NCBI GenBank assembly: GCA_903944165.1
Contig: CAJAQT010000125.1
Span: 287-64,286, forward strand
Direction of reading: 5' to 3'
DNA from: an uncultured Methylococcaceae bacterium
Lineage (GTDB): Bacteria; Pseudomonadota; Gammaproteobacteria; Methylococcales; Methylomonadaceae
DNA length: 64,000 bases
The notes below the pieces were generated by a model, which was given only the letters and a program-made list of their open reading frames with translations, was not told where the DNA came from and ran no database searches. Of the stretch, positions 6,825-32,865 are shown in pieces; within the stretch, counting starts at the first letter, position 1, and the number at the start of each line of letters is the position of its first letter. Made by a program: the position numbers and the translations under genes.

Positions 6825-6897
6825 ACCATCTCTTTATTTACGTAAAGGACCGCTTTATTCACCGCTTAACACCCTGAAATATGATAAAATCACGTTG

Positions 6898-7697: not shown

Positions 7698-7745
7698 CGT
7701 TTAATTGATGAGATATGGTTTTTTTATCAAGCAATGGGGTAAGAT

Positions 7746-8213: not shown

Positions 8214-8231
8214 ACCAGTGAGGATGCGCTA

Positions 8232-9158: not shown

Positions 9159-9437
9159 ATGAACACTTTTCGCCTTTGGGGTATAGGCACCTTATTTTTA
9201 ATACTACTAGGCTCGGCGTTAACAGTCATTTTTTGTAAATACCATTCACGCCTACTTTTTATGGAACTACAGCAACAAGAAAGTGCGCTTGATCAATATG
9301 AAGTTGAATGGGGACAAATGCAGTTAGAACTCACTATGCTGACTGAACACAATAGAATTGAACAATTTGCAGTAGAAAACTTAAAACTTATTATTCCTTT
9401 GCGTGAAAAAACCATTTATCTAAAACCTGCAAACTAA
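9159..9437 (+). CDS. ftsL: Cell division protein FtsL
   Basis: One TM plus leucine-zipper (EWGQMQLE); position between rsmH and ftsI. Confidence 0.9.
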   Translation: MNTFRLWGIGTLFLILLGSALTVIFCKYHSRLLFMELQQQESALDQYEVEWGQMQLELTMLTEHNRIEQFAVENLKLIIPLREKTIYLKPAN

Positions 9438-9443
9438 AAAGCC

Positions 9444-11285
9444 ATGCTGGATTTAAGAATCACCACAACAAAATCTAAGCCCCAAGCGAGCAATGATTTT
9501 TCTTTTAGAAAAACATTCTTATTGGGCTTTATGCTGTGTTGCATGACGCTATTAATAAGCCGCGCTTTTTATTTACAAGTTATTGAAAAAGATTTTCTTC
9601 AAGACCAAGGTGACGACAGACACGTTGACGATATTGTTATCCCTGCCTATCGCGGCATGATTAAAGACAGAAACGGAGCGCCCTTAGCCGTTAGTACGCC
9701 TGTAGAATCAATTGCTGTTAATCCAAGAGAACTCATCACTGACGATAAAAATAGACTCAAACAACTTGAAAAAGAATTTAGAAAAAAACAACAATTACTC
9801 AAGCTGTCTGAGACCGATAAAGCCCAAATATTAAACGATTATCGCAAAGAAAAATCGTTAACCATTAAAACTATCGAAAACCTTCTGCATTTACCCTCAG
9901 GAAAAATAACACAGTTATTAAATGAAAAGCCCTTACGCGCCTACGCTTATCTTGCTAGAAGCATCAACCCCGAATTAAGCGAAAATATTAAAGCGTTAAA
10001 ATTAACGGGGGTTTATTTTGAACGCGAATTTAAACGTTTCTACCCTACAGGCAGTGTATCAGCCCATCTTGTCGGCTTTACCGATATTGAAGAAAAAGGG
10101 CAGGGCGGCATGGAGTTAGGCTATGAAAATGTCCTTAAAGGTATCTCTGGCAGTAAGCGTGTAATTAAAGATGGTCATCGCCAAATTATTGCTGATGTAG
10201 AAAATATAAAAGAACCTGTTAACGGCAAAGATATTGTTCTAAGCATCGATCAACGTATTCAATACCTTGCCTATAAAGAATTACAGCGCGGTGTGACTGA
10301 AAATCAAGCAAAAACTGGCACTGTCGTTGTCCTTGATGCCAAAAATGGCGAAATATTGGCTGTTGCCAATCAACCTTCATTTAACCCTAATACGCGAAAA
10401 GAAATAAAAGAATATTTTTATCGCAATCGAGCATTAACAGAAGTGTTTGAGCCAGGCTCAACAGTAAAGCCCTTTGTTGTTGCCGCGGCTTTAGATGGTG
10501 GCTATATCAAACCCACCGATGTCTTCGAGACTCATGGTAGCTTTCAAATTGGTCGTCACCAAGTAAAAGACGTGCACAATTACGGCACCCTTGACTTAAC
10601 CCATGTGATCAAAAAATCTAGCAATATTGCCGTCAGCCAAATGGCCTTAAAAATGCCGCCAGATTATTTTTGGAACATCTATCACCGTCTTGGCTTTGGC
10701 GTTTCTGCCGGCACTGGTTTTGTGGGTGAAGCCAATGGCATTTTATTAGATTATCATCGCTGGCATGATTTTGAGCGCGCCACCCTATCTTTTGGTTATG
10801 GCATGAATGCCTCGGCATTACAGCTTGCTCGCTCCTACACTGCGCTTGCTGATGATGGCATATTGCATTCTGTAAGCTTACTCAAACGCGATGAAGATAT
10901 TGATCAACAACGTGTCTTCAGCACAAAAACAGCTCGACGAGTTCGTGCCATGATGGAGCACGTTATCATGGAAGACGGCACCGCGTATGAAGCCAGAGTA
11001 GATGGCTACAGCGTTGCCGGCAAAACGGGTACGGTTAAAAAATCAGGGGGTAAAAGCGGCTATCTTGATAAAAAATATTTCTCAGTATTTGCAGGCTTTG
11101 CCCCTGCTAAAAATCCTCGTTTGATTATTGTCGTCATGATTGATGAGCCCTCTGCTGGTCAATATTACGGCGGCTTAGTGTCGGCTCCTGTTTTTTCTAA
11201 ACTCATGTCGGGTGCGTTACGCATTCTTAATATCGCGCCTGACAAAGAAGAAACCATGCCTATTTTACTCACGCAAGCACCTTAA
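9444..11285 (+). CDS. ftsI: Penicillin-binding protein 3 (septal transpeptidase)
   Basis: RGMIKDRNG, EPGSTVK (SxxK), KSSN (SxN), KTGT motifs. Confidence 0.96.
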   Translation: MLDLRITTTKSKPQASNDFSFRKTFLLGFMLCCMTLLISRAFYLQVIEKDFLQDQGDDRHVDDIVIPAYRGMIKDRNGAPLAVSTPVESIAVNPRELITDDKNRLKQLEKEFRKKQQLLKLSETDKAQILNDYRKEKSLTIKTIENLLHLPSGKITQLLNEKPLRAYAYLARSINPELSENIKALKLTGVYFEREFKRFYPTGSVSAHLVGFTDIEEKGQGGMELGYENVLKGISGSKRVIKDGHRQIIADVENIKEPVNGKDIVLSIDQRIQYLAYKELQRGVTENQAKTGTVVVLDAKNGEILAVANQPSFNPNTRKEIKEYFYRNRALTEVFEPGSTVKPFVVAAALDGGYIKPTDVFETHGSFQIGRHQVKDVHNYGTLDLTHVIKKSSNIAVSQMALKMPPDYFWNIYHRLGFGVSAGTGFVGEANGILLDYHRWHDFERATLSFGYGMNASALQLARSYTALADDGILHSVSLLKRDEDIDQQRVFSTKTARRVRAMMEHVIMEDGTAYEARVDGYSVAGKTGTVKKSGGKSGYLDKKYFSVFAGFAPAKNPRLIIVVMIDEPSAGQYYGGLVSAPVFSKLMSGALRILNIAPDKEETMPILLTQAP

Positions 11286-11302
11286 TTGGATGGGTAATTA
11301 CT

Positions 11303-12805
11303 ATGCAACTCGCCACGCTATTTCAAAAATTATCTGCACTTGAGCCCCAATCTCAAGCTTATAACAGATTAAATATCAATAACTTAAGTATTGATAGCCG
11401 CACCATTAGTCATCATGATGTGTTTATTGCCTTAACAGGCAGCCAACAGCACGGCTTGTATTTCGCCGAACAAGCCATTAACAAAGGTGCTGCTGCGATT
11501 TTATATGATCCAGAGCAAGATGGTCGGCACTTAGCCAGCACCATTAGCGCAATTCCTACAATTGCAGTGCCAAACTTAAGCACACAACTTGGCCTTATCG
11601 CCGCCAATTTTTATGGCTGGCCAACAGACGCATTAACGCTAGTTGGCATAACGGGCACCAATGGTAAAACTTCGTGTACACAATTCTTACATCAACTAAC
11701 CGAACATAGCGGCGTTATTGGCACCTTAGGCTGGGGTGATCGACAGCAACTTCATGCTACGCAGCACACCACACCTGATGCCTTAACATTACAAAAAATA
11801 TTTTCTAGCTTTAAAAACAATCACCAACATACCGTATTTATGGAAGTGTCCTCACACGCCATAAGTCAACACAGAACCAGCGGCCTTCCCTTTGAAGGCA
11901 TCGTCTTTACAAATATCACCCGTGATCATTTAGATTACCACTTAACGTTTTCAGCCTATTGCAACGCAAAACTACAATTGCTTGATACGCCTGACCTACG
12001 CTTTGTGGTGATGAATCTTGATGATGAACTCGCCTCCAAAATTATTTCACGCACTCCCGCAACGGCAATACTTTGGAGCACCAGTTGCACGGGTAAAACC
12101 CTGCACACTGCAACCAGTCTCGTTGCAACACAGCTTCGCCAAACCCCGACTGGCATAGCATTTGACGTTCATCTTGATCAACAGCAACACCATCTTAGTT
12201 TACCGTTGTATGGCTTATTTAATGTGAGCAACTGTCTGCAAGTATTAGCCGTATTGCTCGCAAAAGGCATGAGTTTTTCCGTAGCCTGTCAACAGCTGAA
12301 GAACTTACAACCCATTCAGGGGCGCATGGAGCGTTTGGGCGGACACGATCAGCCCCATATTGTCATTGATTATGCCCATACCCCCGACGCCTTAGAAAAA
12401 GCATTAAGTAGTTTACGCGCACATTGTCAGCACCGGCTTTGGCTGGTCTTCGGTTGTGGCGGCAATCGCGATCAAGGCAAACGTCCATTAATGGGCGAAT
12501 GCGCTTCACGCTTTGCTGATCAAATCATCCTTACCGATGACAATCCCAGAGATGAGGCGAGTGAACAGATTATTGCCGACATTATGACTGGCTGCGAGCA
12601 CCAAAAAACACGTGTTATCGCTAATAGAGAACTCGCCATTCATTATGCAATTGCTCATGCCAGCCCCAAAGATTGCATTTTAATCGCGGGCAAAGGGCAT
12701 GAAGATTACCAAGAGAGTGCCGGTGAACGCTTTCCCTTTAGCGATAAAGAATGCGCACTGCACGCCTTAACCCAAACCTATCCAGCATTGGGCCAAATAA
12801 CATGA
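11303..12805 (+). CDS. murE: UDP-MurNAc-Ala-Glu:meso-DAP ligase
   Basis: GITGTNGKT, TTPD, MEVSSH, DYAHTPD, DNPR (DAP-specific), AGKGHE. Confidence 0.96.
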   Translation: MQLATLFQKLSALEPQSQAYNRLNINNLSIDSRTISHHDVFIALTGSQQHGLYFAEQAINKGAAAILYDPEQDGRHLASTISAIPTIAVPNLSTQLGLIAANFYGWPTDALTLVGITGTNGKTSCTQFLHQLTEHSGVIGTLGWGDRQQLHATQHTTPDALTLQKIFSSFKNNHQHTVFMEVSSHAISQHRTSGLPFEGIVFTNITRDHLDYHLTFSAYCNAKLQLLDTPDLRFVVMNLDDELASKIISRTPATAILWSTSCTGKTLHTATSLVATQLRQTPTGIAFDVHLDQQQHHLSLPLYGLFNVSNCLQVLAVLLAKGMSFSVACQQLKNLQPIQGRMERLGGHDQPHIVIDYAHTPDALEKALSSLRAHCQHRLWLVFGCGGNRDQGKRPLMGECASRFADQIILTDDNPRDEASEQIIADIMTGCEHQKTRVIANRELAIHYAIAHASPKDCILIAGKGHEDYQESAGERFPFSDKECALHALTQTYPALGQIT

Positions 12806-18911: not shown

Positions 18912-20347
18912 AAATACCTACTATTCGTTCAATGGTACAGTCCTTAGGCAATATCCAACGTATTCACTTTATTGGTATTGGTGGCACGGGCATGAGTGGG
19001 ATTGCCGAAGTATTATCAAACTTAGGTTATCAGGTGTCTGGCTCTGACATTAAAGAAAGCAGTGTCACTCAGCGCTTAGCGGAATTAGGCGTAAAGATTT
19101 TTATAGGCCACCAGCGCGACAATATTACTAATGTTGACGTTGTCGTCGCGTCAAGCGCTATCGATCACCATAACGAAGAAATCGCGGCAGCTATTGCACA
19201 CCGAATTCCTGTTATTCCACGTGCGGAAATGTTGGCTGAATTAATGCGTTTTCGTTTTGGTATTGCCGTTGCCGGCACCCACGGAAAAACCACTACCACC
19301 AGCTTAACAGCAAGTATGTTAGCTGAAGGTGGCTTAGATCCTACCTTTGTTATAGGTGGCAGACTTAACAGTGCTGGCACTAATGCAAAATTGGGCTTAG
19401 GTCACTACTTAGTTGCGGAAGCTGATGAAAGCGACGCCTCATTTCTTTATTTACAACCGATGATTGCAGTGATTACTAATATTGACCAAGATCACATGGC
19501 AACCTATGAAAATAATTTTCAACGCTTAAAAGATACCTTTATTGAATTTTTACATCACTTACCCTTTTATGGCTTAGCCGTCCTTTGCCTTGATGATGAA
19601 GGTGTAAAAGAGATTTTACCCAAAGTATCCAAGCCAACGCTTACTTATGGTGTTGATGAGCTAGCCGATGTTCGCGCAATCAATATTAAGCAAGAAGGCT
19701 TACAAACACACTTCACTGTACTGCGTCGCGGTGATTATCCAGACTTACAGGTGACCTTAAATATGCCAGGTTGGCATAACATGCTAAATGCTTTAGCTGC
19801 AATTGCAATTGCCACCAAATTACACGTTGACGATCGCGCCATTAGCGCAAGCTTAAGCAGCTTTAAAGGGATTGGGCGCCGCTTTCAACATAGCGTAATT
19901 GAATTACCTACACTGGGTAGCATTCCACTCGTAGATGATTATGGGCATCACCCAAGAGAAATTGCAGCAACCTTAGAGGCCTTAAGACAAGCGTGGCCAA
20001 ACAAACGTGCCGTAGTGATATTTCAACCACACCGTTACAGTCGCACACGAGATTTATTTGAAGATTTTGTCCACGTACTCTCTAGCGTTGATGTGCTGAT
20101 TTTGATGGACGTGTACTCCGCAGGCGAAACGCCTATTCCTGGCGCTGATGGTCGTGCCTTAAGTCGTGCGATACGGATACGCGGACAGGTTGATCCCGTA
20201 TTTATTGAAACATGGGAAGAATTGCCTGGCTTATTAAAAAGAATTATGCAAGCAAACGATGTCATTTTAACAATGGGGGCAGGTAATGTTGGACACATCG
20301 CACCACAGTTACCGGCACTTCTACAACAAGAATGGCAGGCCCAATGA
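18908..20347 (+). CDS. murC: UDP-MurNAc:L-Ala ligase
   Basis: [41 protein letters not shown]; ATG at 18908 overlaps the murG stop. Confidence 0.96.
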
Positions 20348-22161
20348 GCTTAACGGGACAATTATTAGTCAATGAAAAACTGGCCAAATACACCAGTTGG
20401 CGTATAGGTGGGCCAGCAGATTGCCTGTACTTGCCTGAAAATAAAGTCGACCTCATTGCCTTTATCCAACATCTACCCCACGATGAACCGCTGTTTTGGT
20501 TAGGGCTTGGCAGTAATGTACTTATCAGAGACGGTGGACTACGCGGTACTGTTATCAACACTAAAAATCGTCTAAGAACACTTCGCTTAACCGACGACGG
20601 CAAAGTCTTTGCGGAAGCAGGCGTTCCGTGTGCGCATATCGCCAAGTTTTGCAGCGAACACGGCTTAATCGGTGCAGAATTTTTCGCAGGCATACCTGGC
20701 ACCTTAGGCGGAGCCCTCAAAATGAATGCCGGTGCTTTTGGCTGCGAAACCTGGCAAATTGTTGAGAACGTTGAAACAATTAATCGCAGTGGCGACGTTT
20801 CAATAAGAATGCCCGAAGAATTTACCATCAACTATCGCTCGGTCAATACGCTGCACAACGAATGGTTTTTGTCGGCACAATTAAGCCTTACTCTTGGTGA
20901 TAGCCTAGCAAGTCAACAAAAAATCAAGCAATTATTGGAACAACGTAGCAAAACGCAACCGACCAATCAACCCAGTTGTGGCTCGGTATTTAAAAATCCA
21001 GAGGGTGATTTTGCCGCACGCTTGATCGAACAATCAGGGTTAAAAGGTTATTGCCTTGGTGGCGCGTGCGTATCACCTAAACACGCTAATTTTATTATCA
21101 ACATGGGCAGTGCTACCGCTCAGGATATTGAAGATTTAATCACTTATATACAAACCACCGTGCAACAACAGCATGGCATTAGTTTACACACCGAGGTCTA
21201 TATGGTTGGCGATAGCGTCCCCCAAGCACACCCAACAACAACATCAATCAGCACCTCAGAGTTTGGGCGTGTTGCTGTTGTCATGGGCGGCAGCGCAGCA
21301 GAACGCGAAATTTCTCTACGTAGCGGTCAAGCTGTGTACCAAGCCTTAAAAGAGCAAGGCATACAAGTCGAAGCAATTGATTTACACGACCAGCCAATTG
21401 AAACCTTACGCTCCCTTAAGGCAGATAGAGTATTTAATATTATTCATGGTCGTGGCGGTGAAGATGGTGTCTTACAAAGTATTTTAGAGGTGATGAAACT
21501 ACCTTACACCGGCAGTGGCGTGCTCGCGTCCGCTTTAACCATGGATAAACTAAAAACTAAGCTATGCTGGCAAGGCGCGGGCTTACCCACCCCAAAATGG
21601 TTTCTACTCAAAACAACGGATGATTTGCATCAATGTGCAGAGAGCTTAGGCTTTCCTGTCATTGTTAAACCTGCCCAAGAAGGTTCCAGCATCGGCATGA
21701 GCAAAGCCAATACCGCAGATGAATTAGCGCAGGCTTTTATTCTTGCCAAGCAGTTTAATTGTGATGTGTATGCCGAACAATGGGTGTATGGTAAAGAATA
21801 CACGGTTGCGTTATTACAAGAGGAAGCACTCCCTGTTATTCGCTTAGAAACTCCTCGTGCGTTTTATGACTACGAAGCAAAATATCAAGCCACCACGACC
21901 CAATACCATTGTCCAAGTGGTTTAGACGAACACACCGAAAGCGCCCTTAAGGCTTTGGCAAAAACAGCGGCAGAGGTCGTAGGCGTAAAGGGCTGGGGGC
22001 GCGTTGATGTCTTTATTGACGACCATCAGCAGTATCAATTAATTGAAATTAATACGGTGCCCGGCATGACTGATCATAGCTTAGTGCCCATGGCGGCCGC
22101 ACAAGCAGGTATCGATTTTGCGTCCTTAGTCAGGAGAATATTAGCCACCAGTATGACCTAA
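20344..22161 (+). CDS. murB-ddl: Fused MurB (UDP-GlcNAc-enolpyruvate reductase) and Ddl (D-Ala-D-Ala ligase)
   Basis: N half: [45 protein letters not shown] half: [35 protein letters not shown]. One uninterrupted frame; ATG at 20344 overlaps the murC stop. Confidence 0.92.
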
Positions 22162-22937
22162 TGAACAGCGTAGGTCTTAAAATCCTGATTATTGGCATGC
22201 TCGCACTCACCGGGCTAATTGGCTTATTTGCTTATAAAAATGAAAAACTGAAGTTCAATTTAAAAATCGCATCATTACCAATTAAATATGTTCGCACCGA
22301 AGGCGTTTTTCAATTTTTAACAAAAGATGAAATTAAAACTGCCTTGCAACCCTTGGTAACCACTGGTTTTTTTGAAGCCGATATGCAAGCTATTCACGAA
22401 ACAGTTGCCCATTTACCGTGGGTAGAAACCGTCTCGGTAAAGCGTGTTTGGCCAGATACCATTGATATCAAAGTACGTGAAAGAAAAGCCTTTGTCCGCT
22501 GGGGCGAGCAACAATTAATGACGGAACAAGGCACGATTTTTACACCCAGCTCCATCCAAAAGCATGAACACTTACTGTTACTGGTTGGGCCAGAAGAACA
22601 ACATGCCAAAGTATTGGAAATCATGAAAGGTATAAAAACCACCTTGGCAGATCAAAATTTTGAATTAAAGAAATTCACGATAAACGATCGCTGGGCATGG
22701 ACGGTCAAATTAACCACAGAATTAACTATCCTTTTAGGGAGAGAAAATCAATTAGAAAAATTACAACGATTTTTAAAAACCTTACCGCTGCTCCCCACAG
22801 AACAACTAGATTCTATGGTCGTAGTAGATTTACGGTACCCCAATGGCTATGCCGTTTCATGGTTAACTGATAACCCTGAAATTGACTGGAAAAAAATTGC
22901 AAACGGTGAAAATAACACTCATGAATACTCACATTAA
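22161..22937 (+). CDS. ftsQ: Cell division protein FtsQ
   Basis: TM plus POTRA domain (LPWVETVSVKRVWP), VDLRYPNGYAV. Confidence 0.93.
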   Translation: MNSVGLKILIIGMLALTGLIGLFAYKNEKLKFNLKIASLPIKYVRTEGVFQFLTKDEIKTALQPLVTTGFFEADMQAIHETVAHLPWVETVSVKRVWPDTIDIKVRERKAFVRWGEQQLMTEQGTIFTPSSIQKHEHLLLLVGPEEQHAKVLEIMKGIKTTLADQNFELKKFTINDRWAWTVKLTTELTILLGRENQLEKLQRFLKTLPLLPTEQLDSMVVVDLRYPNGYAVSWLTDNPEIDWKKIANGENNTHEYSH

Positions 22938-22954
22938 ACGAACGAGTTAATAAA

Positions 22955-24184
22955 ATGGCTAGAAATAGAACAGAACGTAATTTGATTGTCGGCTTAGACA
23001 TTGGCACGTCAAAAGTTGCCGCAATTGTTGGTGAAATCAATAATGAAGGCAATATTGAAGTCATTGGGATAGGCAACTCATTATCACGAGGCTTAAAAAA
23101 AGGTGTGGTAGTCAATCTCGAATCAACCGTCATGTCTATTCAACGCGCCATTGAAGAAGCTGAACTGATGGCGGGCTGTCAAATTAAATCTGTCTTTGCT
23201 GGCATTGCGGGCAGTCACATCCGCAGCTTAAATTCCCATGGTGTGGTGGCGATAAAAGATCGCGAAGTCACTCAATACGATATTGATCGCGTCATTGATT
23301 CAGCACGCGCAGTGGCTATTTCTGCTGATCAAAAGATTCTTCATATTCTTCCACAAGAGTTTGTGATAGATCAGCAAGATAGCATTAAAGAGCCCATTGG
23401 TATGTCTGGCACTCGCTTAGAGGCTAAAGTTCACATGGTTACGGGCAGTGTGAGTGCGTCCCAAAACATCATTAAATGTATTCGTCGCTGTGGCTTAGAA
23501 GTTGAAGACTTAGTATTGGAACAATTAGCTTCATGTTATTCCGTGCTTACCGAAGATGAAAAAGAATTAGGCGTGTGTTTAATCGATATTGGTGGCGGTA
23601 CCACTGACATTGCAATCTTTGTTGAAGGCGCGATCAAACACACTGCGGTAATCCCCATTGCTGGCGACCAAGTCACCAATGATATTGCCGTTGCCTTACG
23701 CACGCCCACCATTAATGCTGAAGAAATTAAGCGTAAATATGCGTGTGCCTTAACGCAATTGGCAGATATTAACGGAATTATTGATGTGCCCAGTATTGGT
23801 GATCGTTCGCCACGACAAATTACTGCACAAAATTTAGCGGAAATTATTGAGCCACGTTATGAAGAGCTTATGCTCTTAGTGCAAGCAGAAATTAGACGTA
23901 GCGGCAATGAAGACATGATTGCTGCGGGCATTGTCTTAACGGGGGGCAGTTCAAAAGTCATGGGTTTGATTGAATTAGCAGAAGAAATCTTCCACATGCC
24001 CGTGCGCATGGGTGGGCCAGAAAATGTAACGGGGTTAACAGAGGTTATAAAAAACCCTATGCACTCAACGGGGGTAGGGTTATTAATGTATGGGAAAGAT
24101 CATCAAGGATTGACCAGAAGCATCGATGCGGAGGACGAGCATTGGATGGTGAAAATAAAAAGTTGGTTTCAAGGTAATTTTTAA
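22955..24184 (+). CDS. ftsA: Cell division protein FtsA
   Basis: GLDIGTSK, DIGGGTT, LTGGSS, C-terminal amphipathic WFQGNF. Confidence 0.98.
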   Translation: MARNRTERNLIVGLDIGTSKVAAIVGEINNEGNIEVIGIGNSLSRGLKKGVVVNLESTVMSIQRAIEEAELMAGCQIKSVFAGIAGSHIRSLNSHGVVAIKDREVTQYDIDRVIDSARAVAISADQKILHILPQEFVIDQQDSIKEPIGMSGTRLEAKVHMVTGSVSASQNIIKCIRRCGLEVEDLVLEQLASCYSVLTEDEKELGVCLIDIGGGTTDIAIFVEGAIKHTAVIPIAGDQVTNDIAVALRTPTINAEEIKRKYACALTQLADINGIIDVPSIGDRSPRQITAQNLAEIIEPRYEELMLLVQAEIRRSGNEDMIAAGIVLTGGSSKVMGLIELAEEIFHMPVRMGGPENVTGLTEVIKNPMHSTGVGLLMYGKDHQGLTRSIDAEDEHWMVKIKSWFQGNF

Positions 24185-24245
24185 CGAATAACGTGCGTCT
24201 TAGGCAAATTTATCAGTTTCTTTATTATAAAATTGGAGTAGTGTG

Positions 24246-25403
24246 ATGAAATATGAATTAGTAGATATGTATAGTGAAACAGCTGTCATCAAAGTTATTG
24301 GCGTGGGGGGCGGTGGCGGTAATGCCGTTAATCATATGGTTGGCAATCACATTGATGGCGTAGAATTTATTTGTGCCAATACCGATGCGCAAGCCTTAAG
24401 AAAATTAAACGTTAATACTATCATTCAGCTGGGCGTTGAATTAACAAAAGGCCTAGGTGCAGGCACCAATCCAGAAATTGGCAAGCACGCCGCACAAGAA
24501 AACAAAGAGCGCATCAAAGAAGTGTTAAATGGTGCAGACATGGTCTTTTTAACAGCAGGCATGGGCGGTGGTACTGGCACGGGTGCCATTCCAGTCATCG
24601 CCGAAATTGCCCGTGAAATGGGCATATTAACTGTCGCGGTTGTCACTAAACCCTTCTTATTTGAAGGTAAAAAGAAACAAGCCGTCGCTGAGCAGGGCAT
24701 TATCGAGCTGGAAAAATATGTTGATTCATTAATCACCATTCCCAATCAAAAATTATTACCCGTGTTGGGCAACGATGTCTCATTAATGAATGCCTTTAAA
24801 GCCGCCAATGATGTCTTACTCGACGCAGTGCAAGGCATTACCGAATTAATTGTTCACCCCGGCATGATCAATGTTGATTTTGCTGATGTGAGAACTGTTA
24901 TGTCTGGCATGGGCGCGGCTATTATGGGTTCAGGCGCGGCTTCTGGTGAGAATCGCGCTCGCGTTGCTGCAGAAAAAGCGATTGCCTGCCCCTTGCTTGA
25001 AGACATTAATTTACAAGGTGCGCGCGGTATTTTAGTCAATATCTCCGCGGCCGATATGGGTATTGCAGAATTTAACGAAGTGGGTAACATCGTTCATGAA
25101 TTTGCCTCAGAAGATGCCATCATTAAAATTGGTACCGCAATTGATCCGTCCTTAGGCGATGAAATTAAAGTGACTGTCGTGGCAACAGGCATGGGTTTAC
25201 CTCCAGTAGCCGCCAAAGCCCCTATAAAATTAATGCACAAACCAACAAAAGTCGTCAATTATGATGACCTTGAAAAACCAACCATCATGCGTCAAGGTGT
25301 AAAACCAGAAACTAAAGAAGTACGTTTCGGTGCGCAACCTAAAAAAGAGGCGGATATGGATTACTTAGATATTCCTGCCTTTTTAAGACGTCAAGCCGAT
25401 TAA
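24246..25403 (+). CDS. ftsZ: Cell division protein FtsZ
   Basis: GGGTGTG tubulin signature, NVDFADV, C-terminal LDIPAFLRRQAD. Confidence 0.98.
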   Translation: MKYELVDMYSETAVIKVIGVGGGGGNAVNHMVGNHIDGVEFICANTDAQALRKLNVNTIIQLGVELTKGLGAGTNPEIGKHAAQENKERIKEVLNGADMVFLTAGMGGGTGTGAIPVIAEIAREMGILTVAVVTKPFLFEGKKKQAVAEQGIIELEKYVDSLITIPNQKLLPVLGNDVSLMNAFKAANDVLLDAVQGITELIVHPGMINVDFADVRTVMSGMGAAIMGSGAASGENRARVAAEKAIACPLLEDINLQGARGILVNISAADMGIAEFNEVGNIVHEFASEDAIIKIGTAIDPSLGDEIKVTVVATGMGLPPVAAKAPIKLMHKPTKVVNYDDLEKPTIMRQGVKPETKEVRFGAQPKKEADMDYLDIPAFLRRQAD

Positions 25404-25425
25404 TAATCATACACAGTATAGATGC

Positions 25426-25447
25426 GCGCGAGCATTCAAGCTCGCGC
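25426..25447 (+). other. GC-rich stem-loop after ftsZ (GCGCGAGC-ATTCAA-GCTCGCGC)
   Basis: Perfect 8-bp stem 22 bp after the ftsZ stop. No immediate U-tract, so it may be a stabiliser or weak terminator. Confidence 0.5.
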
Positions 25448-25639
25448 TGCTCTGCATTCCTGACTTTTCCTGAACAAGCCATAGAAATTTACATCGACAC
25501 GACAAATCGCTGAACAAAGCTTTTAAATACGCGTGTATTTCCTTACAATAGTTTTTTCGAATTTCCTACTTTTTCTCAACCCAAGTAAACACTTCATCAC
25601 AGGTGTTCATTTACATTGAGTAAATCTATTTTGAGTGCT

Positions 25640-28600
25640 ATGAAAAAAAACAATCTCACCCTCGGCATCCCTAATTTCTCTTATTCTGATTTATACGATG
25701 CACATCGCTTACATGATTTACTTCATGTTTTCGATACTTTTGTGCAGCAACATGACCCCCTATTGTTTAACAAATTTACTACCCTTCGCAACGCATCTGA
25801 CACCGACTTTGAGCCTAAAGAGAAGTCAGAAATACTCGTTGCAATGGCACCGTATGTAGGTCAGTTTGTCGCCACGCTATTTAATATAACTGAGGTTCGT
25901 AACGCCCAACAAACCGCCATAAAAAACGAAATTGACAGCATTTATACCTATAAAAATGACGTTGTCGAAAAATTATCAGTGCGCTTTAAAGGACAAGAGA
26001 CTAGCTCATGGGATCAACACGCGCTTACCGCAGACCTTGAAGCCATCATCATCAACGCATATCCAGAAGTTGCGCAGAACCCTGATGCCGAATACCGCAC
26101 TGCTTATGTTGGCGCAAATGTTAGTCGTTTTGCACAGTATTTTCAGCAACTAGCAAAAGGCAAAACCTGCGCAAATGCCTTGCTTGAAAAAGAAGCCCTG
26201 AAGGTGCGCACATGCTTACAAGCCGCTAAGGAGCTAAGTCCCACGCTGACCGCAATGACTCAATTAACAAATCTCTCAGAGTTTGCCATACAGCTAATGG
26301 ATGTCATTGCACGCTGGAGCGTCCTTGCCTTACACGATGACAATTATTGCCACTGGCTTAGTTTTAAATTCCCCCAAAAACGTGATTTTGAACAGTTAGT
26401 TAAACATGACACCATCGAGCGCGCTGGACACTCTGTATGGATGGGGTCACATAGAAGACACCGTGATGGTTTTAGCTTAACGGATACGCGCTATAACCAG
26501 CGTGAAGTGCTCTCTGAGGTTAATCACTGTATTTATTGCCACGAGCGCGACACAGATTCTTGCTCAAAAGGCATGCGTAATAAAAAAACCAATCTTTTTA
26601 AGCAAGATCCATTAGGCGAAACCACCATTGGCTGTCCGCTTGATGAAAAAATCTCTGAAATGCACCTTGTTAAAAGAGGTGGCGATAATATTGGCGCACT
26701 CGCTATCATTATTATCGACAACCCAATGTGCCCAGGCACTGGACATCGTATCTGCAACGAGTGCATGAAAGGCTGTATTTATCAAAAAACAGACCCTGTA
26801 AATATTCCACAAATTGAAACTAACGTCTTAACTGATGTACTGTTTATGCCTTATGGCTTTGAAATTTATAGTTTTTTAACGCGCTGGAATCCATTGAATG
26901 TAAACCGTCCACATATGCTGCCTTATAACGGCAAAAATGTATTAGTGGTCGGCTTAGGTCCTGCTGGCTATACAATGAGCCATTATCTTCTTAACGAAGG
27001 CTTTGCTGTTGTGGGCATTGACGGCTTAAAAATAGAGCCCTTACCTGAAGAATTAACGGGCAGCGATGCTCAATTACCCGAACCTATTGAAGATTTTAAT
27101 AGCCTTTACGAAGATTTAGATAAACGTATCCTCGCAGGCTTTGGGGGCGTTGCTGAATATGGCATTACTGTCCGCTGGGACAAAAACTTTCTAAAAGTTA
27201 TTTATTTAACCTTACAACGACGCGCCGCTTTTAGAAGCTATGGCGGCATCCGTTTTGGCGGCACACTTACCATCGACGATGCCTGGAACCTAGGTTTTCA
27301 CCATATTTGTATTGCCACAGGCGCGGGCAAACCAACCATTATTGATATTAAAAACAATTTAATCCGTGGCATTCGTAAAGCCTCTGATTTCTTAATGGGC
27401 TTGCAATTAACGGGCGCAGCTAAAGCCTCTTCATTAGCTAACTTGCAAGTTCGTTTGCCTGCGGGCGTAATTGGCGGAGGCTTAACTGCCATTGATACCG
27501 CCACCGAGTTAATGGCTTACTATCCCGTACAAGTTGAAAAAATAGTGCATCGTTATGAAACCTTAGTCCATTCACTGGGCGAAGCTCACATCAGAAACCT
27601 TTACGATAAAGAAGAACAGGGCATCTTAGATGAGTTCTTAAGTCATGGTCAGCTAATTCGAGCAGAACGTGAACGTGCGAACAGTGCAGGCGAGACACCT
27701 GATTTTCAAACATTAATTAATCGCTGGGGCGGCGTAACCTTGTATTACCGAAAAGGCATTAATGATGCACCTGCATACCGTCAAAACCATGAAGAAATAG
27801 AAAAAGCCTTAGAAGAGGGCATTGCGCTTGCAGAAGGCATGTCACCAACTTCTGCATGGCAAGATGAATATGGCCATTTAAACGCCGTGGAATTTGATAA
27901 ATTAGAACTAGAAAATGGGCGTTGGGTGTCAACACATCAAACACTTAATATCCCTTTGCGCAGCTTATACATTGCCGCAGGCACCTCGCCAAATACCATT
28001 TACGAAAATGAATATCCAGATTCTTTTGTGATGGATAAACAGTTCTACCAACGCTATGAACCTAACTGGCACGTGGATGGCATTGAATTAATCGCGATGA
28101 GTGACGAGACCAAACCCAAACTAGGCAAACCCGCGCCACTTACCTCATATCACAAAGACGGAAAATACATCAGCTTCTTTGGCGACAATCATCCAGTTTA
28201 TGCCGGCAACGTAGTAAAAGCGATGGCCAGTGCTAAACATGGCTATCCTTATGTGGTCAAATTATTTGAACATGAATTAACCAAACTTAATCAGCATGAT
28301 CAAGCCGAGCGCAACGAACACAGGAAACAGCTTTTTGCTACCTTAGATGATAAATTTACCGCGACCATTGTTGCCATTAACCGCTTAACACCTACTATTA
28401 TCGAAGTGATAGTGAGAGCGCCATTAGCCGCAGAAAAATTTCATCCAGGGCAATTTTATCGCGTTCAAAACTTTGAACGCTACGCACCCACCGTCCACGA
28501 CACAGTGCTAGCCTGTGAAGGCTTAGCCTTAACTGGCGCCGAAGTAGACAAAGAAAAAGGCACTATCTCCTTAATCGCATTAGAAATGGGCTCGTCCTCT

Positions 28601-29323
28601 AAATTATGTGCGACCTGGAATATCGGCGATCCTTTGGTCATTATGGGCGTAACAGGCACACCCACTGAAATTCCAAGCAATCAAACCATCTTACTTATTG
28701 GTGGGGGCTTAGGAAATGCTGTGTTATTTTCAATTGGTAAAGCGCTGCGTGCTGCGGGTAATAAAGTCATTTATTTTGCTGGCTACAAATTTACTCGCGA
28801 TGTGTTTAAAACCGAGGATATCGAAGCTGCGGCTGATTTAATCATTTGGACAGTAGACAACACATCCCCTGATGTACACGCACTTCCAATCACTCGACCT
28901 CAAGATAAATCCTTTGTAGGAAATATTCTTGAATGTATGTTGGCGTATGCAGAAGGCAATCTAGGCGAACAAGCAATAGCCCTTGCTGATGTTGATCACT
29001 TAATTGTTATCGGCTCAGACCGAATGATGGCTGCGGTTAAAGAAGCGCGCTTCAATAGTCTTAAACCATACTTAGCCAAAGTCAGTCATGCTATTGGCTC
29101 TATTAACTCCCCCATGCAATGTATGATGAAGGGGATTTGTGCTCAATGTCTGTGCAAACATATTGATAAAGAAACGGGCAAAGAATTTTTTGTGTACTCG
29201 TGCTATAACCAAGATCAAGATCTTGATAGCGTAGATTTTGTACACTTAAACGCTCGTCTAAAACAAAATAGTGTTCAAGAAAAGATGTCTAATCAATGGC
29301 TTGAGTTTATTACACACCAATAA
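25640..29323 (+). CDS. Large FAD/Fe-S oxidoreductase: GltD/NfnB-like domain fused to a C-terminal PyrK/NfnA (FNR-like, 2Fe-2S) domain
   Basis: CIYCH..DSCSKG, GCPL, CPGTGHRICNECMKGC (Fe-S); VVGLGPAG (FAD); VIGGGLTAID (NAD(P)); PGQFYRVQ, GGGLGNA, GSDRMM, SPMQCMMKGICAQC (PyrK-type cluster). ATG at 25640 preferred over TTG at 25616. Confidence 0.85.
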   Translation: MKKNNLTLGIPNFSYSDLYDAHRLHDLLHVFDTFVQQHDPLLFNKFTTLRNASDTDFEPKEKSEILVAMAPYVGQFVATLFNITEVRNAQQTAIKNEIDSIYTYKNDVVEKLSVRFKGQETSSWDQHALTADLEAIIINAYPEVAQNPDAEYRTAYVGANVSRFAQYFQQLAKGKTCANALLEKEALKVRTCLQAAKELSPTLTAMTQLTNLSEFAIQLMDVIARWSVLALHDDNYCHWLSFKFPQKRDFEQLVKHDTIERAGHSVWMGSHRRHRDGFSLTDTRYNQREVLSEVNHCIYCHERDTDSCSKGMRNKKTNLFKQDPLGETTIGCPLDEKISEMHLVKRGGDNIGALAIIIIDNPMCPGTGHRICNECMKGCIYQKTDPVNIPQIETNVLTDVLFMPYGFEIYSFLTRWNPLNVNRPHMLPYNGKNVLVVGLGPAGYTMSHYLLNEGFAVVGIDGLKIEPLPEELTGSDAQLPEPIEDFNSLYEDLDKRILAGFGGVAEYGITVRWDKNFLKVIYLTLQRRAAFRSYGGIRFGGTLTIDDAWNLGFHHICIATGAGKPTIIDIKNNLIRGIRKASDFLMGLQLTGAAKASSLANLQVRLPAGVIGGGLTAIDTATELMAYYPVQVEKIVHRYETLVHSLGEAHIRNLYDKEEQGILDEFLSHGQLIRAERERANSAGETPDFQTLINRWGGVTLYYRKGINDAPAYRQNHEEIEKALEEGIALAEGMSPTSAWQDEYGHLNAVEFDKLELENGRWVSTHQTLNIPLRSLYIAAGTSPNTIYENEYPDSFVMDKQFYQRYEPNWHVDGIELIAMSDETKPKLGKPAPLTSYHKDGKYISFFGDNHPVYAGNVVKAMASAKHGYPYVVKLFEHELTKLNQHDQAERNEHRKQLFATLDDKFTATIVAINRLTPTIIEVIVRAPLAAEKFHPGQFYRVQNFERYAPTVHDTVLACEGLALTGAEVDKEKGTISLIALEMGSSSKLCATWNIGDPLVIMGVTGTPTEIPSNQTILLIGGGLGNAVLFSIGKALRAAGNKVIYFAGYKFTRDVFKTEDIEAAADLIIWTVDNTSPDVHALPITRPQDKSFVGNILECMLAYAEGNLGEQAIALADVDHLIVIGSDRMMAAVKEARFNSLKPYLAKVSHAIGSINSPMQCMMKGICAQCLCKHIDKETGKEFFVYSCYNQDQDLDSVDFVHLNARLKQNSVQEKMSNQWLEFITHQ

Positions 29324-29478
29324 GCTTAACCATTACGTGAACACATCATTTTTTTAGAGTAGCAAAGGATGCATTATCGGTCGTCAAGTGTAGGGCAGCT
29401 CTGCACTCGTCACCGATATTAAAAACACGGTAACTAGATCAGCCACTAAACCAATGATCCTACAGAGAGCCTTACTTT

Positions 29479-29787
29479 ATGAAACACAATGACTTAATAG
29501 TTTTATCAATGTTAATCAGCACACTGATGGGATTAAATGGGTGCGCCTCTGATCAAAGCATTGCCCCCCCGAGTAATCAAATCATTTCTGGCGACCAAAT
29601 GTTGCGCGACAGCCAAGCAATCGCTCAACTAAATAGTCAATGGAAAAAAGGCAAACAACTCATTGAGCAAGGCAATACTTTAGTCAGAGAAGGCCAAACA
29701 AAAATTGATGAAGGCAGTCGTTTAATTACTGAAGGTGAAAAAATTGTTCATGAAAGCGAAGAAAGTTACAAAAAAATAAAGCAATAA
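29479..29787 (+). CDS. Small lipoprotein with heptad repeats
   Basis: Lipobox LNG-C; repeated xEGxxL/I heptads. Confidence 0.75.
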   Translation: MKHNDLIVLSMLISTLMGLNGCASDQSIAPPSNQIISGDQMLRDSQAIAQLNSQWKKGKQLIEQGNTLVREGQTKIDEGSRLITEGEKIVHESEESYKKIKQ

Positions 29788-30280
29788 TGTCATCGTTTCA
29801 GCGCAACACAGCAGTAAGTTTGATTACCAAAACACCTTATAAAAAAAGCAACAAGCTGATAATAAAAGCTTAAGTGCAATTATCTATACAATAATTTGCC
29901 TTATATTTACCTGCACTCACTAGCTAAGGATGAACTAAATAAACAAAAAAAATTAAAATTAATTCACTATCGTAAAAAAGTAACAAAAGAGATTTAAACT
30001 AACTGAAAACTAGCATTGATGAAATGTCTTTTTATCAAGGTTAATTCATGAGTCACTACCTTTTTAAGTCACCCCATCCTTTAATCAACCTATGTAACGA
30101 CCAACTATAATAATGAAAAAGTCTTATTTATAAATCTACGCTATACTTAAACACTATTAAGTACTGCAAAACCTCAAAAACTATAGTAAAAAATTATATA
30201 TAATTCCAAAAACTTTGAATGTTACAACTTTAACCTTTACAAGTTTTTATTTTGAACAATTGAACATAATGGAGAAAACA

Positions 30281-30643
30281 ATGGCAAGCATTCTTGCAGT
30301 TGACGATTCAGCATCAATGAGAAAAATGGTTACATTCACGTTGAAAAGTGCTGGATATGATGTAGAAGAAGCAGTAGATGGTGTTGATGCATTAGAAAAA
30401 GCACAATCTAAACAATTTGATTGCATCATCACAGATGTGAATATGCCAAATAAAGATGGCATAACACTAATAAAAGATTTACGTGCCATTGCTAACTATA
30501 AATTTACTCCAATGCTGACGCTCACCACAGAGTCGGGCATGGAAAAGAAAATGGAAGGTAAAGCGGCAGGAGCAACTGGATGGATTGTCAAACCATTCGA
30601 TCCTGATCAATTATTAAAAACCTTAAAAAAAGTTTTGGGCTAA
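30281..30643 (+). CDS. cheY: Chemotaxis response regulator CheY
   Basis: ILAVDDS, ITDVNMP, LTT, GWIVKPF; GGAG RBS at 30271 supports the start at 30281. Confidence 0.93.
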   Translation: MASILAVDDSASMRKMVTFTLKSAGYDVEEAVDGVDALEKAQSKQFDCIITDVNMPNKDGITLIKDLRAIANYKFTPMLTLTTESGMEKKMEGKAAGATGWIVKPFDPDQLLKTLKKVLG

Positions 30644-30690
30644 GTAGTCATTTCTTTTTAATTTAAACATAAAGGCACACAGGTAAGTTT

Positions 30691-32865
30691 ATGTCTATCG
30701 ATATGTCACAATTCCATCAAGTTTTCTTTGAAGAATGTTTCGAAGGACTGGAGGCCATGGAGGCTGGATTGCTGAATCTAAATATAGATGATATCGATCC
30801 AGAAGTGATAAACACCATTTTCAGAGGCGCTCATTCTATTAAAGGCGGGAGTGGAACCTTTGGATTTAATAATGTCGCAGACTTTACGCACATCATGGAA
30901 ACATTACTTGATGAAATGCGTGATGGTCGTCGTCAAGTAACCCAAATAGCAATCAATATTCTTTTGGGTTCAGTGGATTGCTTAAGGGAAATGATCTCTT
31001 CAATACAAAATGAAGAAGAGGTCGATGAATCAAGAGTAGCTCAACATACTGCTGATTTAGATAATGAGTTAAATGGTGTGGCGGAATCAACCCCACCGCC
31101 AAGCCATAAAGTGAGTGCAGAAACAATAATAACTGAACCATCAGAAGTTATATCTGATTCTAGTGAAACCAGCGATACCAATGAAGAATCAGGTTGGAAA
31201 ATTGCTTTTTGCCCTTATCTCGATCTTCTCAAAACGGGTAATGATCCCGTCAGAATGTTTAGAGAACTCTCTGAACTAGGCGAGTTAACATCACTAGCTA
31301 ACATACAAGACGTACCAAGTTTATTCGAAATGGATCCAGAAGAATGTAATATTTCTTGGGATCTTAAAGTAATGGGCGATATTCCACTGGATGAAATTGA
31401 AGAAATTTTTAATTGGGTGGAAGGTGACTGTGAGTTAGATATCCAACCGATTGCCCCCAAACCAGTCAAAAAAATAGCCCCTCCCGTTAGTCAAGCTGAA
31501 CCTGAACTTGACACTGAAGAGACTATCGCAACTCAAGCGAAGGAACCGCAGCAACCAACTCAGCCAGAAATTATTGTTGAACAAGCTGAAGTCAGCAAAG
31601 ACATTGAAGCTATTCCAAAGCCTCCAACAACCGCGCCTAAAGAACCAAATAAAAAGGTACAGCTGGATTCAGATCAATCCAAACTGATCGTACAAGTTGC
31701 CAGCTCAATCAGAGTTGATACCTCAAAAATTGATGCCTTAATAAATATGGTTGGCGAAGTGGTTATCACCCAATCCATGCTTGGCTTGGTTGGGGAAAAC
31801 TTCACTATGGACAAAGTCGATCAACTAAAAAAAGGCCTGGCTCAATTAGAACGCCACACCAGAGACCTACAGCAAAGCGTCATGAATGTACGCATGCTAC
31901 CCATTAGCTTTGTTTTTAGTCGCTTTCCCAGATTGGTTCATGATATAAGCAGCAAGCTAGGCAAAAAGATTGAACTTAAATTGGTTGGAGAAAATACTGA
32001 AATTGATAAATCTGTGGTGGAATTAATCAATGACCCTCTTGTTCACTTAATCAGAAACAGCTTGGATCACGGCATTGAAATGCCCGCAAATCGAATTGCA
32101 GCGGGCAAACCAGAAACAGGAACCATTGAATTAAAAGCCTATCATCGCGGCGGACATATTGTCATAGAAATCATCGATGACGGGCATGGCATGGATAAAA
32201 ACAAGTTAATTGCCAAAGCAGTTGAAAAAGGACTTATCGATGACAGCAGTGTCTTAACAGATAAACAAGCTTATGAATTAATTTTCTTACCAGGATTCTC
32301 TACCGCAGAAAAACTAACTGACATTTCAGGTCGTGGCGTAGGGATGGACGTTGTTAGAAGAAATATTGAAGCCTTAGGCGGAAATATAGAAATTTCTTCA
32401 GAATTAGGTCACGGCACAACCATTGCAATTCATTTGCCACTCACCTTAGCGATACTAGACGGTCAATCAGTAGCGGTCGGCGATGAAACCTATATTGTCC
32501 CTCTTGTTTCTATCATTGAATCAATTAACATCACTGAAAAAATGCTCAATAAAGTAGCCGGAAAAGGAGAAACATTCCGTCTACGTAATCAATACATTCC
32601 CATTATTAGGATGCATAAAATATTTAACGTACAACCAAGCTCCAAATCTAAAATGGGGGAGGGTGTTATTGTTGTCGCCGAAGGTCAAGGTGTTTTGTGT
32701 GGATTATTTGTTGATGATTTATTAGGTCAGCAACAAGTTGTAATCAAATCGCTTGAAGCAAACTATCGTAGAGTCGATGGCGTTTCAGGAGCGACTATAT
32801 TAGGTGACGGCTCAGTTGCGTTAATTCTTGATGTGCCAGGCTTGGTTCGATTTTCAAATCGATAA
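30691..32865 (+). CDS. cheA: Chemotaxis histidine kinase CheA
   Basis: Hpt HSIKGG, dimerisation SIRV, DPLVHLIRNSLDHG, PGFSTA, GRGVGMDVV, C-terminal CheW-like domain. Confidence 0.97.
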   Translation: MSIDMSQFHQVFFEECFEGLEAMEAGLLNLNIDDIDPEVINTIFRGAHSIKGGSGTFGFNNVADFTHIMETLLDEMRDGRRQVTQIAINILLGSVDCLREMISSIQNEEEVDESRVAQHTADLDNELNGVAESTPPPSHKVSAETIITEPSEVISDSSETSDTNEESGWKIAFCPYLDLLKTGNDPVRMFRELSELGELTSLANIQDVPSLFEMDPEECNISWDLKVMGDIPLDEIEEIFNWVEGDCELDIQPIAPKPVKKIAPPVSQAEPELDTEETIATQAKEPQQPTQPEIIVEQAEVSKDIEAIPKPPTTAPKEPNKKVQLDSDQSKLIVQVASSIRVDTSKIDALINMVGEVVITQSMLGLVGENFTMDKVDQLKKGLAQLERHTRDLQQSVMNVRMLPISFVFSRFPRLVHDISSKLGKKIELKLVGENTEIDKSVVELINDPLVHLIRNSLDHGIEMPANRIAAGKPETGTIELKAYHRGGHIVIEIIDDGHGMDKNKLIAKAVEKGLIDDSSVLTDKQAYELIFLPGFSTAEKLTDISGRGVGMDVVRRNIEALGGNIEISSELGHGTTIAIHLPLTLAILDGQSVAVGDETYIVPLVSIIESINITEKMLNKVAGKGETFRLRNQYIPIIRMHKIFNVQPSSKSKMGEGVIVVAEGQGVLCGLFVDDLLGQQQVVIKSLEANYRRVDGVSGATILGDGSVALILDVPGLVRFSNR

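Follow-up and report, generated by a model that had tools for sequence, protein, structure and literature searches.

A single-chain Nfn-like flavoprotein of the RP005 family in a Methylococcales genome and its proposed role in NADPH-linked ferredoxin reduction

The DNA analysed here, a 64-kb stretch (hereafter the window) from an uncultured Methylococcaceae bacterium, carries a gene for a 1227-residue protein of RP005/PRK06567, a large protein family found mostly in aerobic bacteria; in this protein a family-specific helical domain and two redox modules are joined on one chain. The nearest characterised relatives of these modules are the Nfn/Xfn ferredoxin:NADP oxidoreductases, and across the family the NAD site has been lost many times over, with no corresponding loss of the NADPH-flavin-Fe-S core or of the [2Fe-2S] motif. 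With a confidence that leans only modestly in its favour, we read the product as a soluble single-chain Fe-S flavoprotein acting as an NADPH-linked ferredoxin reductase. The architecture itself is not new, as the family is catalogued (NF005128, PF27156) and the fused NfnB-NfnA order is known as Pattern C (PMC6405883); what is new here are the family-wide losses of the NAD loop with the core kept, the class-wide pattern of occurrence of RP005 and Fpr, and an N-terminal domain with no fold match in the PDB.

Architecture and kinship

The original prediction had described a single chain joining an NfnB/GltD-like to an NfnA/PyrK-like oxidoreductase, a layout that is borne out by the open reading frame (ORF), by sequence profiles and by the predicted structure, and the Fe-S cysteines, flavin adenine dinucleotide (FAD) and NAD(P) Rossmann motifs, ferredoxin-NADP reductase (FNR)-like domain and PyrK-type terminal cysteine motif that it listed are all present. 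An AlphaFold2 model of residues 28-1227, built from a 48-sequence alignment (predicted local distance difference test, pLDDT, 93.4; predicted template-modelling score, pTM, 0.93), consists of an all-helical domain to about residue 245, a beta hairpin, the NfnL/GltD-like module, a linker helix and the NfnS/PyrK-like module. The uncharacterised N-terminal region of about 280 residues that had been proposed does exist, but it is about 245 residues long; the conserved RRDGFxLTD (273-282) aligns with the N-terminus of Thermotoga maritima NfnB and is part of the NfnB-like module, and the alignment of the model to NfnL begins at about residue 244.

The local Pfam copy yields only Pyr_redox_2 (residues 433-648) and a weak Fer4_20, with no match in the N-terminal region, which is assigned to PF27156 (RP005_N) in the precomputed Pfam annotation of the identical database protein and of all close homologues, and likewise in the nearest ESM Atlas clusters. 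NF005128/PRK06567 matches with E 1.3e-198 and 662 bits over model positions 13-685 and two further stretches, and weaker NCBIfam matches are to fused NfnAB-like families, PyrK and GltD. The family (PF27156 plus Pyr_redox_2) has the same three-part layout and the same N-terminal domain, but 662 bits falls short of the 1072 bits set as the curated cut-off for equivalogs, and the window protein therefore represents a divergent gammaproteobacterial/methanotroph branch and not an equivalog of the Rickettsia protein. The NF005128 name, 'putative bifunctional glutamate synthase subunit beta/2-polyprenylphenol hydroxylase', is a domain-based guess.

Structural comparison with VIA-align places the NfnL/GltD-like module closest to NfnI-L of Pyrococcus furiosus (5jfc_L; Z 30.1, root-mean-square deviation (rmsd) 2.1, 440 of 463 residues, 28% identity), followed by Xfn (5vj7_A, Z 29.4), GltD (Z 27.8, 17-19% identity), dihydropyrimidine dehydrogenase (DPD, Z about 23.9) and T. 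maritima NfnB (Z 23.3), and the C-terminal module closest to T. maritima NfnA (4yry_C, Z 15.1, 259 of 265 residues) and PyrK (1ep1_B, Z 14.8). Foldseek gives a template-modelling (TM) score of 0.86 to NfnL and of 0.90, with an rmsd of 2.5, to NfnS (5jca_S), so that the alignment to NfnAB that the original prediction had proposed yields close matches to both subunits. The sequence profile of the 48-sequence alignment, searched against PDB sequences, separates the families better than do the VIA-align scores, with E values of 2.8e-30 for Xfn, 1.1e-29 for NfnI-L, 3.3e-24 for T. maritima NfnB, 2.7e-21 for NfnS and 1.8e-13 for GltD. Because of these structural and profile scores, Nfn and Xfn are the nearest characterised relatives, and GltD is clearly further by profile.

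The central module thus shares its fold with GltD and with the N-terminal half of DPD, but identity to these is only 17-21%, profile scores are weaker (the GltD model TIGR01317 matches with E 0.00055 and 18.9 bits against a cut-off of 447.7), and it is accompanied neither by a partner domain nor by a neighbouring gene of the GltB or DPD type. PyrK family models likewise score far below their cut-offs, and the PyrK-like module is fused here instead of standing alone as a protein of about 260 residues with a class 1B pyrD. With Nfn, in contrast, the protein shares both subunit folds, the cofactor motifs, the arginine at flavin N5 and the NADPH-binding YR(R/K); it differs in having the L-like and then the S-like part on a single chain, together with an additional N-terminal domain of 245 residues and an insert of 55 residues, in its all-Cys [2Fe-2S] motif, the missing PQE segment and other cysteine spacing, in occurring in aerobes, and in a NAD site that the family can do without. 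The best profile match, Xfn (NfnII) of P. furiosus (5VJ7), is reported to be a ferredoxin:NADP+ oxidoreductase that makes no use of NAD (PMC6405883), as would be expected for RP005 members with a degenerate NAD loop. Xfn is, however, a two-subunit enzyme of an anaerobic archaeon and lacks the N-terminal domain, and the window protein keeps an intact NAD loop. Single-chain Nfn homologues of 'Pattern C' (Mobiluncus curtisii ADI67453 type), in which the NfnB-like part precedes the NfnA-like part, have been described from Actinobacteria, Alpha- and Gammaproteobacteria and are uncharacterised (Liang et al. 2019, PMC6405883); by that published description they share the single chain and module order of the window protein, although PRK12779, a model of this type with 944 positions, matches it weakly (130 bits, best stretch residues 695-1222).

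Hallmarks of Nfn and the question of bifurcation

The original prediction also raised a possibly bifurcating transhydrogenase or ferredoxin:NAD(P) reductase. True Nfn-type bifurcation on one chain (2 NADPH + NAD+ + 2 oxidised ferredoxin <-> 2 NADP+ + NADH + 2 reduced ferredoxin), whose direction in an aerobe would be toward reduced ferredoxin, is in our judgement unlikely, and a site-by-site comparison with Nfn brings out both what speaks for it and what does not. In Nfn, an arginine of NfnL/NfnB (R201 in P. furiosus, R187 in T. maritima) hydrogen-bonds N5 of the bifurcating FAD, and YRR of NfnL binds the 2'-phosphate of NADPH; the first-cluster motif is RCx2Cx4Cx3CPV, the distal [4Fe-4S] cluster has a Glu ligand within GRVCPQExQCx3C, and the [2Fe-2S] motif, DGTGMCGxCR, is an Asp-Cys3 site to whose ligation a potential of +80 mV is ascribed (PMC6405883). 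Both of the closest structural and sequence kin of the window protein, NfnL and NfnS, are subunits of this system, and the two sets of sites that they bring are predicted to be complete: an NfnL fold with FAD, an NADPH site and two [4Fe-4S] sites (supported by the structure match and by seven invariant cysteines, the same number as in Nfn), and an NfnS fold with FAD, a NAD site and a [2Fe-2S] site. The nucleotide motifs (GGGLTA with YRK, and IGGGLGN) are intact, T965 and D1054 are as in NfnS, and the pTM of the model would suggest a fixed packing of the two modules.

The arginine at N5 does not decide the matter. R512 was found by HMMER alignment (GGVAEYGIT-VR vs GGVLIYGIPEFR) and is invariant in the 48 aligned sequences and in the 124 family representatives described below, so that the arginine which the original prediction had proposed to check is present, and the motif GG..YGI..R/K aligns in every NfnL/Xfn chain compared. 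The same motif occurs, however, in GltD and DPD, which do not bifurcate, and because of this breadth R512 counts as a trait common to the GltD-like superfamily as a whole and is not diagnostic for bifurcation. The motif for the NADPH 2'-phosphate reads YRK instead of YRR, with R704 conserved at 94-100% and K/R705 at 73-82%.

Two hallmarks of Nfn, the Asp-Cys3 [2Fe-2S] site and the spacing of the first cysteines, differ in the window protein, and the original interpretation stands only in part. The [2Fe-2S] motif is QC1161MMKGIC1167AQC1170, in which a cysteine, invariant in the RP005 family, takes the place of the Asp that ligates the +80 mV first acceptor in Nfn. The first-cluster cysteines are equal in number but follow HC-x2-C-x7-C-x23-CP, and the PQE segment with its Glu ligand, an insertion in NfnL relative to the RP005 family, is absent. 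An acidic residue, E374, lies between C372 and C375 (Asp or Glu in 88-98% of representatives), and H301, D306 and E393 are also invariant in the 48 aligned sequences. An all-Cys distal cluster completed by C364 was rejected, this residue being present in just 24 of 48 sequences. Nfn homologues are, moreover, reported almost only from anaerobes (PMC6405883).

Repeated loss of the NAD site

The family-wide evidence comes from an exhaustive HMMER search of proteins clustered at 50% identity, in which 3552 clusters matched at E<=1e-3 and 980 of these at E<=1e-30, and from which the 124 best representatives of at least 1000 residues that contain the C-terminal region were compared. All 124 carry the N-terminal domain and the GltD-like and PyrK-like modules on one chain of about 1000-1250 residues. 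At the PyrK-like NAD site, 60 of them have an intact glycine loop, 17 a borderline one and 47 a degenerate one, and the flavin-contacting T/S965 is found in 97% of the intact class and 38% of the degenerate class, whereas CxxCH, CN(D/E)Cx3C, GxGPAG, R512, GGGLTA and the four [2Fe-2S] cysteines are conserved at 98-100% in every class. On a FastTree tree built from the GltD-like columns only, which keeps the columns of the NAD-loop trait out, the state of the loop (intact or not) changes at least 17 times, and at least 11 of these changes are forced by well-supported branches.

Because the NAD loop has been lost at least 11 times with the rest kept, three-substrate bifurcation is not the core function of the family; as judged from sequence, this argues that the core function would be NADPH-linked one-electron transfer through Fe-S clusters and not an obligate NAD-coupled bifurcation. 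The 60 representatives that keep the NAD site nevertheless suggest that the site is under selection in that half, and the window protein belongs to this complete class, with both nucleotide sites kept. The bifurcating part of the original prediction is therefore sustained by those two sites and weakened by the all-Cys [2Fe-2S] motif, by the losses of the NAD loop and by the presence in this genome of PntAB, which serves NADH/NADPH exchange. An extended version, which we hold to be unlikely, would make the protein an oxygen-tolerant single-chain bifurcating enzyme of aerobes that turns 2 NADPH into two low-potential reduced ferredoxins and NADH, supplying ferredoxin-dependent sulfite and nitrite reduction, nitrogenase-linked ferredoxins and radical S-adenosylmethionine (SAM) enzymes in a methanotroph without Fpr or flavodoxin, with the N-terminal domain shielding the distal cluster or docking ferredoxin.

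A ferredoxin reductase and its proposed electron path

In the ferredoxin reductase that we favour, NADPH would bind the GltD/NfnL-like module (GGGLTA 612-617, Y703-R704-K705) and pass its hydride to the FAD of that module, with R512 predicted to face N5 of the flavin. The electrons would then leave the FAD singly by way of two putative [4Fe-4S] clusters (C297, C300, C308, C332, C372, C375 and C379 plus one non-Cys ligand), and the NfnS/PyrK-like module would provide an all-Cys [2Fe-2S] cluster beside that flavin. The final acceptor would be an external low-potential one-electron carrier, most likely ferredoxin. In the window copy the second FAD/NAD(H) site is apparently complete, and a second branch to or from NAD(H) would be structurally possible. 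Such an enzyme would do the physiological job of Fpr in other Gammaproteobacteria, its consumers being a NirA-family siroheme reductase and nif-linked ferredoxins. Xfn, the closest relative by profile, is reported to reduce NADP+ with ferredoxin without using NAD (PMC6405883).

The surroundings of the gene are as expected for a general electron supplier, since it stands alone and no neighbour family is shared: when the ORFs within six genes of the target were clustered for 74 loci from several phyla, no partner gene common to several lineages emerged, and the best neighbour families (RmlD-like, EPS tyrosine kinase, RecN, ABC ATPase and cNMP-binding protein) reached 11 loci from a single lineage group.

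The N-terminal domain and the possibility of a dedicated acceptor

The same lack of a conserved neighbour bears on a different reading, in which the protein would be a reductase for a specific non-ferredoxin acceptor, a protein or small molecule recognised by the N-terminal domain and the helical insert, by analogy with GltD serving GltB and the Fe-S domains of DPD serving the DPD FMN site. To our knowledge, every other GltD-like module with an established function supplies electrons to a partner of its own. Every member carries the N-terminal domain of about 245 residues and the 55-residue insert, neither of which has a counterpart in Nfn, GltD or DPD. The insert is helical (helices 588-668 in the numbering of the model), with no counterpart in the NfnL alignment and 36% conservation. 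The domain is almost never free-standing, which suggests that it works only with the redox core: among 5.8 billion proteins it gave eight short matches, mostly labelled partial or on small contigs, and these lend no support to a split form of the family.

Folded alone (residues 1-291, 36 sequences), RP005_N gives a bundle of 12 helices with a pLDDT of 90.9, and no fold match was found among 48,161 PDB representatives, the best VIA-align score being Z 6.2 over 67 residues and the best Foldseek E value 0.37. The matches, of which the VIA-align one is to sigma-factor region 4, are short helical ones and were set aside as below the level that the tool regards as meaningful for helical proteins. 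RP005_N is the least conserved part of the protein, with a mean column identity of 24%, and 174-357 residues precede the first cysteine; low conservation over the first 200 residues together with variable length would be more in keeping with a structural cap or shield than with a specific binding site. The missing neighbour gene speaks against a dedicated partner as well, and the occurrence of the family in reduced Rickettsiales genomes, nearly every one of which carries PRK06567, termed a Rickettsiales signature gene (PMC3641634), favours a housekeeping role. Taken together, a specific acceptor seems to us distinctly improbable.

Distribution and relation to Fpr

Close full-length relatives (50-77% identity) occur in assemblies of Methylococcales, other Gammaproteobacteria, Acidobacteriota, Myxococcota (Myxococcus, Corallococcus, Sorangium and Polyangium), Nitrospirota, Planctomycetota and Chlorobiota. 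Fpr, a single-FAD enzyme of 248 residues with no relevant homology to RP005, has the same job that is proposed here, and the two are rarely found in one genome across the class. In 250 gammaproteobacterial genomes from about 210 families, with Fpr scored as NF008178 at E<=1e-40, RP005 is present in 60, Fpr in 61 and neither in 130, and a single genome has both where 14.6 would be expected (odds ratio 0.04, naive Fisher p 1.7e-7). The picture is different in the order of the window, Methylococcales, where 99 of 121 genomes have RP005 and 15 have Fpr (E<1e-50); these 15, made up of all 14 genomes of one genus and one further genome, all have RP005 too, and the 22 genomes of the order without RP005 gave no strong match to Fpr, so that they have neither. 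Unpublished genomes are counted in both tallies (G035 among the 121, G157 and G235 among the 250), and leaving these out shifts counts by one or two with the same conclusions. A strict rule of either RP005 or Fpr is thus ruled out within the order, where 15 of 99 carriers have both; the avoidance is real at large scale, as a tendency across the class and no rule.

Redox inventory of the genome

The genome, which is 98% complete, holds no Fpr by searches with PF00175, NF008178 or the E. coli Fpr protein, its only PF00175 matches being NqrF and a CysJ-like protein, and no free flavodoxin was found in it. Its only siroheme sulfite/nitrite reductase is of the NirA family, the ferredoxin-dependent type. 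Ferredoxin consumers are therefore present where the usual reductase on the NADPH side was not found, which fits the role proposed for RP005. PntAB (PntB match) is present as well, and makes a pure transhydrogenase role unnecessary. RnfC and TrxB are also encoded.

Several of these genes lie in contexts of their own. The NirA-family reductase is seen as N-terminal and C-terminal pieces at two contig ends (C93:3-1034 and C2:19489-20415), probably one gene split by assembly. Contig C108 (545-4092 of the locus) carries, on one strand and linked to nif, a Fer4 ferredoxin, an ArsC-like protein, a flavodiiron protein (ODP/lactamase_B plus flavodoxin, 426 residues), two Fer2 ferredoxins and NifQ; the Fer2 and Fer4 ferredoxins are candidate partners of the RP005 enzyme. 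On contig C134 (4782-5753, minus strand), a TrxR-like flavoprotein of 324 residues without CxxC, far below the TrxB cut-off, has weak matches to type-2 ferredoxin-NADP reductases (6gar, 8c3m), and could be a type-2 FNR and an alternative ferredoxin reductase.

The genome has gltB but no canonical gltD was found in it, and with a GltD-like central module (Z 27.8) RP005 might be imagined to replace the missing subunit and feed electrons from NADPH to GltB. We consider this highly improbable. A CysJ-like diflavin reductase (593 residues, below the cysJ cut-off) lies 44 nt 3' of gltB and is a more obvious donor, which may supply glutamate synthase with electrons in place of GltD; profile kinship of RP005 to GltD is much weaker than to NfnL; and in the order sample most RP005 carriers also have GltD, while six genera (g2, g7, g10, g12, g14 and most of g6) are without both. 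Across the order, the distribution of GltD does not follow that of RP005, and RP005 as a GltD substitute was rejected. GltD is absent in 28 of the 121 order genomes, all of one family. The gltB gene here (contig C157, region 5235-12556 of the locus) is unusually long, at 1831 residues, with a helical C-terminal extension of about 250 residues that has no Pfam match.

Against a role in ferredoxin reduction stand a number of observations from several sides. Complementarity with Fpr fails in the genome's own order (Fpr in 15 of 99 genomes with RP005 and in 0 of 22 without), and 130 of 250 class genomes have neither gene, so that other routes of ferredoxin reduction must exist. Rnf (RnfC) and the TrxR-like flavoprotein are both present here, and RP005 is therefore not the sole candidate ferredoxin reductase. 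A protein of 1227 residues with two flavins and three clusters exceeds the needs of simple NADPH:ferredoxin reduction, the proposal offers no explanation for the N-terminal domain, and it leaves unexplained why the invariant [2Fe-2S] motif persists in members without the NAD site. A literature search found no functional study of any RP005/PRK06567 member.

Ferredoxin reduction in aerobes without Fpr and flavodoxin is poorly documented, and RP005 was found in 60 of the 250 gammaproteobacterial genomes sampled, roughly a quarter, and in 99 of the 121 genomes of Methylococcales, the great majority. Should it prove to be the missing NADPH:ferredoxin reductase, metabolic models of methanotrophs would gain a step that they lack in sulfur and nitrogen assimilation and in N2 fixation, and so would models of Rickettsiales, which are obligate intracellular bacteria. 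Should the complete forms also bifurcate, flavin-based bifurcation would no longer be confined to anaerobes but would reach into the mainstream metabolism of aerobes. A natural comparison series for the bifurcation question is at hand in the members that keep the NAD site and those that have lost it.

Gene, locus and feature coordinates

The gene is one intact ORF (Table 1), and the ATG form is letter-for-letter identical to the database cluster P0002, which has the same length. An in-frame TTG at 25616, 24 nt 5' of the ATG, is an alternative start, and homologues share the start position with the ATG form. More than 8000 database proteins match the window protein, a number well beyond coincidence, and relatives at 73-76% identity come from Methylovulum, Methylobacter and other Methylococcales assemblies. 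This genome has one copy; several relatives (G083, G054, G061, G075, G103, G014, G043, G047 and G001) have two or three RP005 paralogues.

Table 1. Features of the RP005 gene in window coordinates, with residues in ATG numbering
Feature	Position	Strand	Basis
Whole coding sequence, 1227 aa	25640..29323	+	ORF; identical 1227-aa cluster P0002; single copy
RP005_N, family-specific all-alpha domain, about aa 1-245, 12 helices	25640..26374	+	PF27156; AlphaFold2 model
NfnL/GltD-like module, aa 244-878: Fe-S helical, FAD and NADPH domains	26369..28273	+	VIA-align, profile
First Cys motif C297-x2-C300-H301-x4-D306-x-C308-x23-C332-P333	26528..26638	+	Invariant in 48, 98-100% in 124
Second Cys motif C372-N-E374-C375-x3-C379	26753..26776	+	Aligns with NfnL RVC..QCx3C motif
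FAD dinucleotide motif G438-L-G-P-A-G443	26951..26968	+	G438, G440, P441, G443 invariant
R512, counterpart of Arg at N5 of bifurcating FAD (P. furiosus NfnL R201, T. maritima NfnB R187)	27173..27175	+	HMMER alignment
NADPH dinucleotide motif G612-G-G-L-T-A617	27473..27490	+	Alignment conservation
Family-specific helical insert, about aa 641-695, between NADPH Rossmann helix 1 and strand 2	27560..27724	+	Model
Y703-R704-K705, counterpart of NfnL YRR (NADPH 2'-phosphate)	27746..27754	+	Alignment
NfnS/PyrK-like module, aa 902-1224: FAD-binding barrel, NAD-binding domain, [2Fe-2S] extension, C-terminal helix	28343..29311	+	Structure, profile
NAD-site glycine loop I1020-G-G-G-L-G-N1026, intact in window protein	28697..28717	+	Alignment
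All-Cys [2Fe-2S] motif C1161-x5-C1167-x2-C1170-x17-C1188, PyrK type	29120..29203	+	Invariant in 48, 98-100% in 124

On its 5' side the gene follows a complete dcw cluster, whose last gene is ftsZ (stop at 25403), and on its 3' side come a small lipoprotein ORF and then a che (chemotaxis) cluster. Neither gltB nor pyrD adjoins it among the window neighbours, in agreement with what had been noted at the outset for the glutamate synthase large subunit and pyrD; both are found on other contigs, gltB on C157 and pyrD on C209, where the best DHO_dh match is a 351-residue frame unlinked to the RP005 gene. A scan of 25300-30300 for consensus promoters and terminators gave no more sites than shuffled sequence, and no operon boundary was drawn.

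Four lake-water libraries labelled metatranscriptomic (one study, 2020; X1-X4) contain the RP005 gene and its flanks (22900-31500) with 0-1 differences. The same libraries also hold contigs of 22-55 kb that span intergenic regions, and DNA carry-over is possible. Depth per contig varies several-fold between neighbouring genes, which hints at RNA, and is unusable for ranking genes.

In many Gammaproteobacteria, lpxC lies 3' of ftsZ; in the window (24243-25640) the end of the dcw cluster is followed by the RP005 gene in its place. Of about 35 gammaproteobacterial loci, only 5, from close relatives, share the order ftsA-ftsZ-RP005. Further upstream, at 20332-22161, murB and ddl read as a single ORF of 609 residues. 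The ORF directly 3' of the RP005 gene (29479-29787, 102 residues) has a lipoprotein signal (…LMGLNGC) and a helical tail rich in Gln, Glu and Lys, and a very AT-rich stretch at about 29500-31000 (GC 0.32-0.34) takes in this ORF together with the spacer that separates it from the che genes and the first part of the che cluster.

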